Shown: one piece after another, positions 2,235-9,663 of the stretch | Layout of the letters: each line of letters starts with the position of its first letter | How positions within the stretch are numbered: the stretch's first letter is position 1 | Origin: Candidatus Heimdallarchaeota archaeon | Lineage (GTDB): Archaea; Asgardarchaeota; Heimdallarchaeia; JABLTI01 | Direction of reading: 5' to 3' | NCBI GenBank assembly: GCA_019056785.1 | Contig: DXJV01000011.1 | Span: 1-18,497 of the forward strand | Length of the DNA stretch: 18,497 nt | Program-made: the position numbers and the translations under genes | The notes under the pieces: model-generated | The model's database searches: none | Seen by the model: only the letters and a program-made list of their open reading frames with translations | Told to the model about the DNA's origin: nothing

Positions 2235-2846
2235 TCAAAGGAGCTTTTTATCATTAAAATACGTAACCTTCCAAGGTGCCGATCGTTTCTCCCGTTCAAT
2301 GACAGTTGGCTCACAATTTCCAAACCATTCATCCAACTGCTCGGGAAGAACCTTCAGGATTCGAACTAAAATGTGATACAAGGTTCCCCCATGTGCTACT
2401 ATAAGAATAGTCTCATTTTCTTTATGTTGTGCAATAATTTCAAAAAAGACTTCCTGCACCCTTTCCAGCATTTCTCTATTACTTTCTCCCTCGGGAATTT
2501 TTTTATCAAGATCATTTAATGTCATTTCGCGAAAAGCTACTTCCTCAGGGGTCAAGCTTTGTGAACATCGACCGGTAAATATGCCGGCATCTCGTTCACG
2601 GAGTCTTTTGTCAAAAAAACAGTTTTTAATCTGGAGCATTTTACAAATAATTGCTGTAGTTTCGGCTGCTCGCTGGAGATCAGAAGAATAAACAGCATCA
2701 AAAAGGATTTTTCGGTTTCGAAGTTTCTTCCCCAGATTTTTTGCTTGTTTTTTTCCCAAAGAAGTTAAAGACACGGCCCGGTGCCCTGAAATGATTTTGT
2801 GAAGGTTATCTTTACTTTCTCCATGTCGTATCAAGAAAACTCGCAT
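2235..2846 (-). CDS. Histidine phosphatase superfamily protein (phosphoglycerate mutase-like)
   Basis: LIRHGES, YSSDLQRAAET, RLRERDAG, PEGES and VAHGG motifs. Confidence 0.93.
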   Translation of the reverse strand: MRVFLIRHGESKDNLHKIISGHRAVSLTSLGKKQAKNLGKKLRNRKILFDAVYSSDLQRAAETTAIICKMLQIKNCFFDKRLRERDAGIFTGRCSQSLTPEEVAFREMTLNDLDKKIPEGESNREMLERVQEVFFEIIAQHKENETILIVAHGGTLYHILVRILKVLPEQLDEWFGNCEPTVIEREKRSAPWKVTYFNDKKLL

Positions 2847-2950
2847 ACCTTAACCTCAAGATATTTTCCTTGAAAAAGTTCTTTCACTATAAAAAAATTT
2901 CCTTCCCATTTTTTAGTTGTTTATACAGAAGAAGAACCAGAAAGGAAAAA

Positions 2951-3095
2951 ATAGTGGGAACTATACGGGAGTTAATGACAACTATGAGAAACTTTTAGGA
3001 AAGAAATAATTAACAACCAAATAAGGATAATTGAAACAATTATAGCTCAGATAGATATACGTTGGGCAGAATCAGAACGATTCAGAAAATATTAG
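2951..3095 (+). pseudogene. 3' remnant of a gene ending in the same DHp-like domain as 6767..8530
   Basis: 2988-3095 translates ETFRKEIINNQIRIIETIIAQIDIRWAESERFRKY*. This aligns without gaps to IAEQAKLIDETLQQLDRRWLES of the 6767..8530 protein. An in-frame TGA lies at 2985 and there is no start codon. Confidence 0.7.
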
Positions 3096-3201: not shown

Positions 3202-3468
3202 ATGACTATAAGTAATAATATTTTATTCTGTGATCATCGAAAGTATTGCGTTTCTTGTCATGAGAATTATTGGGTTTCAGATGAAACTAATTTGAGAAAA
3301 TATTACCATTGTAAGTATTGTCATATGGATATTTTATGTAAATTTGGTTTGGCTATTTCTTTCGAGTATGATGAATTTTCTATTAATAAGACTATCAGAT
3401 GTAACGTTTGTCACGAAATTGTTGAAGAACGTATTTGGCCTGAAGTTAAGCAAAAAGTAAAAGATTAA
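3202..3468 (+). CDS. Small Cys/His-rich metal-binding protein with three CxxCH motifs
   Basis: 88 aa from ATG 3202, with CDH, CVSCH, CKYCH and CNVCH. No signal peptide or TM segment is visible. A T9 tract follows at 3502-3510. Confidence 0.7.
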   Translation: MTISNNILFCDHRKYCVSCHENYWVSDETNLRKYYHCKYCHMDILCKFGLAISFEYDEFSINKTIRCNVCHEIVEERIWPEVKQKVKD

Positions 3469-3523
3469 GAGTTAATTTCATACGATAAAAGTCAAAAGGT
3501 GTTTTTTTTTCATTTGCCTAAAT

Positions 3524-3540
3524 AATGAGATTTATATATT
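3524..3540 (+). promoter_or_regulatory. Putative BRE/TATA promoter of the GTPase gene
   Basis: AATGAGA-TTTATATA about 45 nt upstream of ATG 3583. Confidence 0.5.
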
Positions 3541-4538: not shown

Positions 4539-5085
4539 ATGGTTCTTGAAGGTTTAATTCAATGCTTGTTGATGTATTAATATATGTCATTTAGATGACA
4601 AAGAGTTAATTTTAAGCGATTCAAAAACCTATGCAGATAATTTACTAAAGATAAACCTAAAATCAAAGATTGGTAAGAAACTTGAAGTTGTATTTCCGAT
4701 TTTAGAACATACTGAATTGATTAAACAATACAGAAAAGCAGAGATATGATGAAGATGGAGGATTTATTAGTCTGAAAATTTTTCAGATAAAATAACGAGA
4801 ATTTTTGGCATTAAAATATATCAAATAAAACCATGTTATCTAATCGTTCTCTTTCCGGATACTTCTGATAGAAGAGGAGTCTACTAGAAGGGAAGAAGCT
4901 TAAAACTAAGGGAATAGGATTTTCTATCGATAACAGCAATTCAACTTAATAACATGGATAACTCGAAAACACTTATCTTTGAGTTTATTAATATCACTAA
5001 AAATGATTAAAGTTTAGAGGGATAGACTTGAACTAAAAAAAAGGGCAATAAATGCACAACTATATCTATTTATTTAACTCGATAG
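4539..5085 (+). pseudogene. Degraded PAS-domain / histidine kinase gene
   Basis: Fragments interrupted by stops and shifts: ELILSDSKTYADNLLKINLKSKIGKKLEVVFPILEHTELIKQYRKA (PAS-like, within 4573-4749), IKIYQIKPCYLIVLFPDTSDRR (PAC-like), TKGIGFLSI (G2-box-like) and GNKCTTISIYLTR* (HATPase C-terminal strand-like). Confidence 0.65.
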
Positions 5086-6766: not shown

Positions 6767-8530
6767 ATGAAATTCAGTAAAATACTACTTATTGATAATA
6801 ATAAGTCAATAAAAAAGTTGATACAAAAGATATTTCATGCAAGTAAATATAAAACACAAATTATTTTATGCAAAGATAAAAAGAATCTTATCGAGCAATT
6901 AAATACTCATAATTTTGATTTAATACTAATTAATAATGAATTAACGTGGACTTGTTCGAAAGCACTAATTGATCTCTTGATTGTGGAAAAACCATATGTT
7001 GGGAAGATAGTTTTTAGTCATAATTGTATTAATCAATTATCAAATGATCTATTATCAAAAGTAGAATTCGTAATTAATAAAATAAGAAAAAATAAAGAGA
7101 ATCTCTTGGCCACATTTACCTTTGCTTTTAATAGAGCCAAGGAAAAAAGAAAACTCGGGCGAATTAATGAAGAATTTCTAGCACTTTTTAACAATGTTCA
7201 CATTGGTTTATTTAAGCTTGATACTATAGGAAAAATACAAACTTGTAATGATACACTGGTTAAATTATTAGGATTTAACAGTAAAAGTGAACTAATAGGA
7301 CGTGAATTAAAGGATTTTATTATAGTTCAACATAATAAAAATCTTGATAATTTATCCAAAATTAATAATAAACAAGAAAATTTGCCATTTATTCAGGGTA
7401 AAGTCAAAATAAAACGGAAAGATGGCGAAATTATCTGGACAGCAATAGATACAAAGCCAATTTATTTTGAGAATAATATTTTCCTTAATTTGTATGGTAG
7501 TGTTAAAGATATTAGTGATGAAGTTAAACTAATTCAAGAAAAAAAAGACAGGCAAACTAATTTACAACTATTCATAGATTCTGCTAACACTTATTTTGTT
7601 GTTCTGGATAAAAATGGTTTAATTTTAATGGTTAATAAAAAATTAGCTGATTTCTATGGCTTGTCAAAAGAAGAATTAATCGGTAATAAATGGAGTGATG
7701 TTATTTTAAATAAAAAACAAAGAGAACGTTTTGAAGTTGCATTTAAAAATATTCTATCAGGTAATATCGAACATTACTTGCATACTGAAACACGTAGAAT
7801 TAATTCTCAAGGTGAAGAAATAGTCATTTTATGGCATAATACTGTTATAAAAAACGGGTATGAAATAACTGCCATAATAAGCTCTGGTATCGATATAACA
7901 GAAAGGAAAAAGTTAGAAGAAGCATTAAAAAACTCTGTAGAACTTTATCGAAGAGTTTTTGAAAATACCGGAACATCAATGGTTGTTGTTGAGGACAAGG
8001 AAACAATCATAGCATGTAATTCAAAATTTCAATTATTATCAGGTTATTCTCATGGAGAAATTATAAACAGTAAATGGAGTAAGTTTATTCATAAAAATGA
8101 TTTAGATTATCTAAATTTAATTGCAAAAGAAAGGTTTGAGAAACCAGAAAGCTTTCCAAGAAACATCAACTTCCGCATAATAACTTTAGATAATCAAAGT
8201 AAAACGATTTGGGCTGTAATTGATGCAATACCTAATACTCATAGAAGTGTTATTTCTATGCAGGATATAACTGATAAAATAATACTCGAGCAAGTAAAAG
8301 AAATGTCTTATCAACAGCTAGAAATGAATATAGAACAATTCGCAATTCTTATCGATAGTATTCGAAATCCAATTTCAGTTATCATGGGTCTTACAGATAT
8401 AGAAGAGAATGAAATAACTGCACAAATAGCAGAACAAGCAAAATTAATTGATGAGACACTACAACAGTTAGATAGACGATGGCTTGAATCAATAAATGTT
8501 AAAAATTTCTTATCAAAATATGAGAGCTAA
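6767..8530 (+). CDS. Pseudo-receiver plus three PAS domains plus C-terminal DHp/HisKA-like domain (no ATPase domain)
   Basis: REC-like (ILLID; FDLILINN, with N at the phospho-Asp site). Three PAS/PAC repeats end in VKDISD, GIDITERK and MQDITD. The tail is NIEQFAILIDSIRNPISVIMG...LDRRWLES. Confidence 0.85.
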   Translation: MKFSKILLIDNNKSIKKLIQKIFHASKYKTQIILCKDKKNLIEQLNTHNFDLILINNELTWTCSKALIDLLIVEKPYVGKIVFSHNCINQLSNDLLSKVEFVINKIRKNKENLLATFTFAFNRAKEKRKLGRINEEFLALFNNVHIGLFKLDTIGKIQTCNDTLVKLLGFNSKSELIGRELKDFIIVQHNKNLDNLSKINNKQENLPFIQGKVKIKRKDGEIIWTAIDTKPIYFENNIFLNLYGSVKDISDEVKLIQEKKDRQTNLQLFIDSANTYFVVLDKNGLILMVNKKLADFYGLSKEELIGNKWSDVILNKKQRERFEVAFKNILSGNIEHYLHTETRRINSQGEEIVILWHNTVIKNGYEITAIISSGIDITERKKLEEALKNSVELYRRVFENTGTSMVVVEDKETIIACNSKFQLLSGYSHGEIINSKWSKFIHKNDLDYLNLIAKERFEKPESFPRNINFRIITLDNQSKTIWAVIDAIPNTHRSVISMQDITDKIILEQVKEMSYQQLEMNIEQFAILIDSIRNPISVIMGLTDIEENEITAQIAEQAKLIDETLQQLDRRWLESINVKNFLSKYES

Positions 8531-8588
8531 TAGAGCTACAACTATTTTTGTTTTCTAGTTTTTTATATGAATATGTAAAAAAGTAGTA

Positions 8589-8660
8589 GGAGTCAGATCG
8601 TCGCATGCACATCACTTTGTGGTGTGGAATCCTCAGTCTGGGGCGTCTTCATCATTCTCC
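8589..8660 (-). ncRNA. Box C/D 2'-O-methylation guide sRNA
   Basis: Minus strand reads GGAG-A-[C box AUGAUGA]-AGACGCCCCAGA-[D' CUGA]-17 nt-[C' GUGAUGU]-GCAUGCGACGAU-[D CUGA]-CUCC. It has a 4-bp terminal stem and two 12-nt guides, with a TATA-like TTTTTAGA about 25 nt upstream. Confidence 0.9.
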
Positions 8661-8862
8661 GTGATTGTTATTCTATTTGCGTTCTAAAAATCTTTGGATG
8701 CTTTGTTAATCCATACAAATGTGACAAAATAGTGGTTCTTTAGAAAGCCATACTGGTTTTGCAAACCTTGAGGAGTGCTTTCTCATTGGGGAGAATCCAA
8801 ATGTCAGTGTATTTATTTGGATGATAAAACATTTTATAATGGTGCGGTTCTGTAGAATAAGT

Positions 8863-9663
8863 ATGGAACGACAATTTCCTTTGACCGAAGAAGAAAAGCA
8901 GATGCGCCGCTTAAAAAACCAACAACTCGTAGAGGCAGCCTTATATCTCGCAGGGCGACCGGTACAGCAACTCGAGCTTGCGCAAGTAACTGGCATTGAC
9001 ACAACAGAAATAGGGCAACTCATTCGTGACCTTCAAGAAAAATACCGGCAGTATTTTAGTGGCTTTGAAATTGTCGAGCTTCCCGGAAAGAAATTTGTCT
9101 TTCAAGTTCGACATGACGTGGCTGAACATGTGAAGGAGATCACTCTGCAACCGCTTTTATCTCTCGCAGAATTACGTACTTTAGCAATGATTGCCTATCA
9201 GCAACCGATTCTCCAATCTTCCGTTGCAAAGGTTCGAGGGCAACAGGCTTATGCTCATATTAAAAATCTAATTCGAAATGGTTTTGTCAAAGCGACGCGA
9301 GTGAAACAAACGTTGGAGCTTCGCACTACGCCGATGTTTTCTGATTATTTTGGCCTTTCACACGACACCGGGGTACTTAAACGACAACTTGGCTGGCGAA
9401 CAAAGCGCATGATAAAAGAGAAGAAAATAAAAGAGCGCGATTCCTATTCAATTGATTCCTTTATGGAAAAGTTGGGCTTAAGCGATAAAGCAGAAGGGGC
9501 GACCTCTAAAGAGGACCTGGAGGCTAAAATTCCGGTAGACAAAGATTCAGCCCGGGATCTTTTCACTACTGTTCTCGATGACCTCGAGGGACCAGATCCA
9601 TTTGAGAACGAAGAACTCACAGGAAATACTGATGAAAAGAAAAGCGAAGAAAAAGAAAATTAA
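8863..9663 (+). CDS. scpB: SMC-Scp complex subunit ScpB (kite, tandem winged helix) with charged C-terminal tail
   Basis: LVEAALYLAGRP, LSLAELRTLAMIAYQQPI, VRG, YAHIKNL and TTPMFSDYFGL motifs. ATG 8863 follows the TATA-like TTTTATAA at 8832. Confidence 0.93.
   Translation: MERQFPLTEEEKQMRRLKNQQLVEAALYLAGRPVQQLELAQVTGIDTTEIGQLIRDLQEKYRQYFSGFEIVELPGKKFVFQVRHDVAEHVKEITLQPLLSLAELRTLAMIAYQQPILQSSVAKVRGQQAYAHIKNLIRNGFVKATRVKQTLELRTTPMFSDYFGLSHDTGVLKRQLGWRTKRMIKEKKIKERDSYSIDSFMEKLGLSDKAEGATSKEDLEAKIPVDKDSARDLFTTVLDDLEGPDPFENEELTGNTDEKKSEEKEN

Follow-up and report, generated by a model that had tools for sequence, protein, structure and literature searches.

A conserved dual-guide box C/D sRNA of Heimdallarchaeia with predicted targets in the P-loop and helix 89 of 23S rRNA

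The 2′-O-methylated guanosine of the 23S rRNA P-loop (Gm2251 in E. coli numbering) is shared by archaea, bacteria and eukaryotes (PMC11542601). In E. coli, it is made by RlmB, a stand-alone SPOUT methyltransferase (PMC11542601). The snoRNAs of Rfam clan CL00053, U31/SNORD31, snR67 and the plant U31b/snoR35, guide 2′-O-methylation of the same P-loop G, which is numbered Gm2619 in yeast, Gm2610/2620 in Arabidopsis and Gm4166/4196 in human. U31, snR67 and AtsnoR35 trace to LECA; no homology between them and archaeal sRNAs could be established, and for RNAs this short it cannot be demonstrated (Hoeppner and Poole 2012). Dennis et al. (2015, PMC4644070) examined seven archaea and predicted sRNA-guided methylation of the G2251 equivalent in three of them; in the same study, other sRNAs with different partner guides are predicted to direct methylation of the U2460 and G2459 equivalents (U2734 and G2733 of the alignment). 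Among the C/D sRNAs identified there by RNA-seq is Sac-sR110 of Sulfolobus acidocaldarius (supplementary file 1 of PMC4644070), which reads ..UGAUGA CGCCGCUCCAGU CUGC AGUA UGAUGU CAACGCGACGAG CUGA.. and was listed without a predicted target. Our literature searches found no dedicated study of Asgard C/D sRNAs.

Here, we describe a real, conserved dual-guide C/D sRNA at positions 8589 to 8660 of an 18,497-nt stretch of DNA, the whole of which is referred to below as the window. The window belongs to a Heimdallarchaeial MAG of 2.87 Mb (38.6% G+C, 82.5% complete, 102 contigs). The sRNA comprises 72 nt of the minus strand, running from position 8660 to position 8589, and reads GGAG-A-AUGAUGA-AGACGCCCCAGA-CUGA-GGAUUCCACACCACAAA-GUGAUGU-GCAUGCGACGAU-CUGA-CUCC. 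Its terminal stem is formed by GGAG (8657 to 8660) pairing with CUCC (8589 to 8592), the latter assigned by reading of the sequence and by stem covariation, and the 5′ half is followed by a 3-nt bulge AAU, so that the C and D boxes lie beside the stem and bulge of a K-turn. The C box, AUGAUGA (8649 to 8655, read from the sequence), is located near the 5′ end and the D box, CUGA (8593 to 8596, placed by sequence and by comparison within the family), near the 3′ end, as in archaeal box C/D sRNAs. The 12-nt D′ guide AGACGCCCCAGA (8637 to 8648), whose N+5 nucleotide is the C at 8641, precedes the D′ box CUGA (8633 to 8636). A 17-nt spacer, GGAUUCCACACCACAAA (8616 to 8632), separates the latter from the C′ box GUGAUGU (8609 to 8615), which is followed by the 12-nt D guide GCAUGCGACGAU (8597 to 8608) with its N+5 at the A at 8601; all of these features are on the minus strand. 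The four boxes, the two 12-nt guides and the terminal stem had been proposed for this interval in an initial annotation, and direct reading located every one of them. We then expressed the architecture as a regular expression requiring the four boxes, guides of 10–14 nt and a terminal stem no shorter than 4 bp. It matched the 2.87-Mb genome once, at 8589 to 8660, and gave no match in 10 block-shuffled genomes.

No Rfam family matched the window at its gathering threshold. Permissive scans yielded C/D matches below threshold only; among these, the sRNA was the best match in the genome to snoPyro_CD (RF00095), with 24.7 bits against a cut-off of 45. This model represents Pyrococcus sRNAs in general, and the long spacer lowers the score. 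All other snoPyro_CD matches in the genome stayed within noise and did not exceed 14.8 bits. Canonical C/D sRNAs may be very few in this mesophile-like Heimdall genome, or the remaining ones may have boxes that are degenerate.

The sRNA is localized between two plus-strand genes that lie 290 bp apart and encode a REC-PAS sensor (6767 to 8530) and ScpB (8821 to 9663); it is therefore an antisense-oriented, free-standing gene. Upstream of it on the minus strand lies a candidate archaeal promoter (8683 to 8697), recognized by block conservation and made of a purine-rich CCAAAGA followed by a TATA-like TTTTTAGA. The latter occupies positions 8690 to 8683, 23–30 nt upstream of the sRNA's first G. 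A YTTTTTAG block is found at the same distance in 11 of 11 loci of the window's family, with neighboring flanks that diverge, and we infer from this conservation that the block is the promoter. A run of six T (8577 to 8582, minus strand) begins 7 nt past the 3′ stem and is likely an oligo-T terminator, judging from its letters and its position; T-rich tracts also occur downstream of the sRNA in most relatives. In a search of public RNA sequencing runs, none was listed as containing this DNA. A 105-codon ORF (8706 to 9023, minus strand) lies just upstream of the sRNA and antisense to the start of ScpB, and its 3′ end is where the candidate promoter is found. It has no Pfam match and is probably spurious. 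As for the protein partners of a C/D sRNP, L7Ae, Nop5 and fibrillarin are all encoded in the genome, by two L7Ae-family genes and by adjacent Nop5 and fibrillarin genes that form an operon at G000:C83:24846-26335.

We performed several searches for relatives of this RNA. A scan of GTDB species genomes with the exact pattern returned nine loci, eight in Heimdallarchaeota or Promethearchaeota/Promethearchaeati MAGs and one in Bathyarchaeia. By BLAST, the sRNA was found in eight of the 10 congeneric genomes and in a sister genus. It is present in 10 of the 12 genomes of the family, and ScpB adjoins it in several of them. Asgard families are labeled here by f-numbers, the window's genome belonging to f1. 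Among 11 distinct f1 sequences, no change is seen in the boxes, including the D′ CUGA and the UGAUG of C′, in the terminal stem or in the blocks CGCCCCAG and CAUGCGACGA. Variation is confined to guide bases outside these core blocks, to the spacer and to U5 of the C box, which reads AUGAAGA or AUGACGA in relatives with its GA dinucleotides unchanged. A covariance model built from the f1 sequences (R1) gave weak matches in two other Heimdall families, which proved to be C/D sRNAs of 64–73 nt with related guides. A second model (R2), built from alignment A4, detected the RNA as a single copy in 47 of the 83 class genomes, with 9/11 genomes in f1, 30/31 in f2, 1/1 in f5, 3/3 in f6 and 3/12 in f4, and no copy in f3 (0/22) or f7 (0/2). 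Across the phylum, R2 found the RNA in 69 of 151 sampled genomes, in 22 further families; the window's sRNA itself scores 85.8 bits. All 20 of 20 fetched examples fit the form ...CC(G/A)(U/C)CCCAG-N-CUGA ... C(G/A)(C/U)GAC(G/A)A-N-box.

The terminal stem covaries between families, reading GGAG/CUCC in f1 and GUGGC/GCCAC in f2. On alignment A4, it is 94% paired, four of its five pairs are changed on both sides between f1 and f2, and its score is attained by none of 500 shuffles, although shuffle statistics here overstate independence since the compared genomes are related. By eye, C-box position 6 and D-box position 1 also change in step, being G-C in f1 (UGAUGA/CUGA), U-A in f2 (UGAUU/AUGA) and A-U in f6 (UGAUA/UUGA), so that a Watson-Crick pair closing the non-canonical stem of the K-turn is kept. 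These observations bear on the view that short box-like motifs came together here by chance, or that the element is a functionless relic in decay. The Rfam score, 24.7 against a gathering threshold of 45 bits, and the degeneration of the internal hairpin in the window's copy (see below) would suit such a view. However, a single-copy orthologue at a syntenic locus within the family, with a conserved TATA-like block upstream, is not what it predicts, nor is conservation throughout the phylum with compensatory changes, and the pattern has no match in shuffled genomes. We thus regard it as extremely improbable and treat the element as a functional C/D sRNA.

In archaeal sRNAs, a K-loop of 3–9 nt usually separates the D′ and C′ boxes. 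The spacer of the window's copy lies outside this range with its 17 nt, and is flanked by internal boxes, CUGA and GUGAUGU, that are both present. Most f1 relatives harbor a 3–4-bp hairpin straight after D′, with a conserved YUCCAC loop, followed by about seven A/U-rich nucleotides; compensatory changes in its stem give GGCG/CGCC, GACG/CGUC, UGGC/GCCA and UGGU/ACCA. The spacer of the window's copy contains a remnant of this hairpin and of its loop motif, reduced to GG/CC with a folding energy of −0.6 kcal/mol, no better than shuffles. In many other Asgard members, the hairpin is flanked as a K-turn stem and ends 3 nt before the GA of C′. Family f2 differs from f1 in having no spacer hairpin, a UGAUU C box and an AUGA D box. 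The initial annotation also described an imperfect hairpin, CACACCAC-AAA-GUGAUGUG, overlapping the C′ box. This hairpin exists and belongs to the predicted MFE fold, in which the C′ box of the window's copy can be sequestered in a competing structure, but it is not conserved. As C′ would be blocked by it and relatives lack it, we regard it as incidental and reject it as a conserved feature of the RNA.

The spacer also contains AUUCCACACC (8621 to 8630, minus strand), a perfect 10-nt Watson-Crick complement of GGUGUGGAAU in helix 6 of the organism's own 16S rRNA, at about G000:C18:770-779. Such a match has a chance probability of about 0.05. It is broken in the three relatives with an assembled 16S (G005, G008 and G009), which carry GGUGCGGAAU or GGUAUGGAAU, and is probably a coincidence on the evidence of these sequences. 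No D-like box is placed to use this complement as a guide. The 16S gene itself is split over two contig ends (G000:C18:5-838 and G000:C1:28-744), unlinked to the 23S contig; this split seems to come from a break in the assembly and not to be biological. GUGGAG, the complement of the f1 loop YUCCAC, is present at two places in the LSU (one of them E. coli ~2067-2072), which is about the chance number, and the rRNA is invariant there.

We searched the organism's own 23S rRNA gene (G000:C99:38470-42544, or L001:1501-5575) for the targets of the two guides. Domain V was aligned to the E. coli 23S rRNA and the numbering checked against A2058, A2451, U2552 and known modified positions. The best LSU match of the D′ guide is GCUGGGGCGGCU at 3230 to 3241, in the P-loop, with eight contiguous Watson-Crick pairs, a mismatch and two more pairs. 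The N+5 nucleotide of the guide faces LSU G3234, which corresponds to E. coli G2251, the second G of the P-loop target. The assignment of this guide to G2251 by the initial annotation thus agrees with both the pairing in the organism's own LSU and the alignment. The best match of the D guide is GUCGUCGCAGGC at 3440 to 3451, where helix 89 begins, with nine contiguous pairs (one of them G-U), a mismatch and two more pairs, and its N+5 faces U3444, or E. coli U2460, in the 5′ strand of helix 89. Here, the anticipated helix and nucleotide were found, but not the perfect target UCGUCGCAUGC, as the organism's own rRNA reads UCGUCGCAGGC and leaves one mismatch. This mismatch involves the A at N10 of the guide, which faces G2465 in every family member, a U being needed for pairing. 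Both target sites are ~210 nt apart and, as had been proposed, are located at the peptidyl transferase centre, which they flank.

Within this single genome, the complementarity does not exceed chance. The guides were shuffled 2000 times and scored by the N+5-covering duplex that they form anywhere in the rRNAs; the real guides score 8 and 8.5 pair-equivalents, and shuffled guides do equally well or better in 43% (D′) and 34% (D) of cases. An rRNA lacking complementarity to the guides had been named beforehand as grounds for abandoning the target assignment: pairing of 8–9 bp is present, although shuffled guides pair just as well. The target call therefore rests on comparative evidence instead.

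The D guide tracks the helix-89 sequence of each lineage, which is the most informative case of covariation. With helix-89 strings taken from a pattern scan of the rRNAs, the 5′ strand GUCGUCGCAGGC in f1 is accompanied by the D guide CAUGCGACGA, GUUGUCGUGGGU in f2 by ACUCACGACGAA, GUUGUCGCGGGC in f5 by CACGCGACAA and GUUGUCACGGGC in f23 by CCCGUGACAA, and the strand GUCGUCGCGGGC, found in both f8 and f18, by CCUGCGACGA and CCCGCGACGA, respectively. Clean double substitutions between the D guide and helix 89 include several changes (2458, 2462, 2463, 2464, 2467). In the P-loop, position 2257 is a C in f1, facing a guide G, and a U in f2, facing a guide A. Summed over 19 genome pairs, duplexes with the own rRNA score 172, versus 141 ± 6 when helix-89 variants are randomly reassigned (0/5000), with the same overstatement of independence as for the stem. 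The predicted assignment of both guides to their targets is thus supported by guide-rRNA covariation and not by the single genome. The helix-89 N+5 falls on U2460 in 12 of these 19 genomes, on G2459 in four and on U2457 in three. Because this base drifts as the paired segment stays, the segment is conserved more strictly than the exact methylated base, and the nucleotide predicted to be methylated in helix 89 is not fixed across Asgard families.

A real C/D sRNA might also direct one or both of its guides to another RNA (a tRNA, an mRNA or another sRNA) rather than to these 23S sites. The chance level of complementarity in the single genome would allow for this, as would three further genomic sites that are perfect 10-nt complements of the D-guide core. 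Yet three such sites are what chance would give, the guide cores likewise have perfect complements outside stable RNAs at chance level only, and none of these sites is in the rRNA genes or the 14 located tRNA genes. Moreover, the invariant cores of the guides are the blocks that pair with rRNA, and the D guide follows the lineage-specific changes of helix 89. Targets elsewhere are thus very unlikely, and most likely, on the comparative evidence, the D′ guide addresses G2251 and the D guide U2460, for sugar methylation of both.

The rRNA genes show several peculiarities in the vicinity of these targets. The organism's own 23S gene is 4075 nt long, against 2987 positions in the archaeal model. 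A stem-forming insertion of ~67 nt is found at the tip of helix 89 (LSU about 3463-3530, L001 about 4963-5030), ~20 nt downstream of the D-guide target. This insertion, either an expansion segment or a small intron, is present in f1, f3, f4, f5 and f6 and absent in f2. In other genomes, an interruption of the 23S gene lies within the PTC ring, with GGGGUAAC on one side and AACAGAG on the other (E. coli ~2450-2452), immediately 5′ of the helix-89 target of the sRNA; the window's own genome has no interruption there. The interruption measures ~190-200 nt in two congeners, L043 (G005) and L044 (G009), and ~390 nt in family f2, at L051-L054 (G028, G016, G026 and G012). These PTC-ring interruptions are probably rRNA introns. 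One of the f2 genomes, L053 (G026), also carries a long (CTTCT)n-type simple repeat directly downstream of its 23S gene, at about 2790-3065.

We consider it very likely, from these sequence comparisons, that the RNA is a dual-guide box C/D sRNA with its own minus-strand transcript that would install Gm2251 and Um2460 via L7Ae, Nop5 and fibrillarin. The sRNA would be transcribed on its own from the minus strand. The C and D boxes together with the 4-bp terminal stem would form a K-turn, the C′ and D′ boxes would form a second L7Ae site, and L7Ae, Nop5 and fibrillarin would assemble on the RNA. The D′ guide would then pair with the P-loop (E. coli 2248-2255), allowing fibrillarin to 2′-O-methylate G2251, and pairing of the D guide with the 5′ strand of helix 89 (2456-2464) would lead to methylation of U2460. 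What the analysis shows of this model is the motif architecture, the single-copy conservation and the covariation of the stem and of guides with rRNA.

The same sRNP might instead act mainly as an assembly chaperone that holds the P-loop and the 5′ strand of helix 89 together and guides the folding of domain V, with methylation being secondary or partial; such a role is compatible with methylation guiding. Both guides address one rRNA domain, this combination of targets is kept from Sulfolobus to Asgard archaea, and in some lineages introns or an insertion lie right beside the helix-89 target. The drift of the helix-89 N+5 between lineages (U2460, G2459, U2457) over a paired segment that stays in place would also be in keeping with a chaperone. 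On the other hand, nothing in the analysis separates this role from methylation, the P-loop N+5 falls on G2251 in all families worked out by hand (f1, f2, f4 and f6) and in Sac-sR110, and G2251 is methylated in all three domains (PMC11542601). We therefore find a principal role in assembly unlikely and retain guided methylation as the preferred reading.

Very few rRNA methylations are common to the three domains. Gm2251 is among these, and is made by RlmB in bacteria and with a snoRNA in eukaryotes. The present comparisons suggest that a single-copy guide RNA serves for it in those archaea that are most closely related to eukaryotes. Guide sets of archaeal C/D sRNAs normally turn over fast, and a guide RNA traceable from Sulfolobus through the whole Asgard phylum is unusual among them. 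The P-loop/helix-89 sRNA and its covariance model provide a concrete marker for the annotation of Asgard genomes, and the two sites are a testable pair for the first maps of Asgard ribosome modification.

Compared with RlmB, the window's sRNA would address the same nucleotide, but RlmB is a protein-only enzyme that works without a guide RNA. The window's sRNA and the U31/snR67 clan share a CGCCCCAG-N-box core, carried by the guide in the 5′ (D′) position. Against the snoU31b model (RF01285), the window's sRNA scores 23.7 bits, below the Rfam threshold of 37; this score results from the shared guide, the likeness being confined to the guide and boxes. The second target of snR67 is Um2724, which is located outside helix 89. 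The clan also differs from the window's sRNA in that eukaryotic C′ and D′ boxes are degenerate. With a score below threshold and a different second target, the window's sRNA falls outside clan CL00053. In most copies from Asgard archaea and Sulfolobus, the core reads CCGUCCCAG or CCGCUCCAG and includes a G-U wobble, and the exact CGCCCCAG identity with U31 is best read, from these sequences, as a derived state of Heimdall family f1, forced by an invariant target. As such, it is no evidence of direct descent or special kinship. The description of this RNA as a counterpart of snR67/SNORD31 thus holds as a functional analogy, concerning the same G and the D′ position, but does not extend to the derived CGCCCCAG identity or to the second target.

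A bolder proposal would make the Sulfolobus-to-Asgard lineage the direct ancestor of U31/snR67/SNORD31, and the f1 spacer a third, accessory element that binds rRNA. It would cover the constant position of the P-loop guide in D′, the f1 loop YUCCAC and the 10-nt complement of 16S helix 6, and extra base-pairing has been described for eukaryotic snoRNAs. We judge this combined proposal decidedly unlikely.

The closest described relative is Sac-sR110, for which we worked out the pairing with the Sac 23S rRNA by hand. Its two guides are equivalent to those of the window's sRNA and stand in the same order, the D′ guide CGCCGCUCCAGU facing G2251 and the D guide CAACGCGACGAG facing U2460, and an A at N10 mismatches G2465 in both RNAs. 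Since Sac-sR110 has both guides in this order, the sRNA family predates the Asgard archaea. Sac-sR110 differs in belonging to the phylum Thermoproteota, in having a 4-nt K-loop against a 17-nt spacer, and in the G-U wobble of its P-loop guide (CCGCUCCAG) where the window's CGCCCCAG is all Watson-Crick. Other Asgard copies share with the window's sRNA the single copy, both guides and the covarying terminal stem, and often have a stem-closed C′/D′ motif. Family f1 has its own variants, namely the cores CGCCCCAG and CAUGCGACGA, the YUCCAC-loop hairpin and a distance of ~7 nt, rather than 3, from the hairpin to the GA of C′. Only the long spacer with its decayed hairpin and the all-Watson-Crick P-loop guide are local peculiarities of the window's copy. 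It adds one more member to the family and changes no concept: the window's sRNA is an ordinary member of an Asgard-wide guide-RNA family with a published Sulfolobus member.
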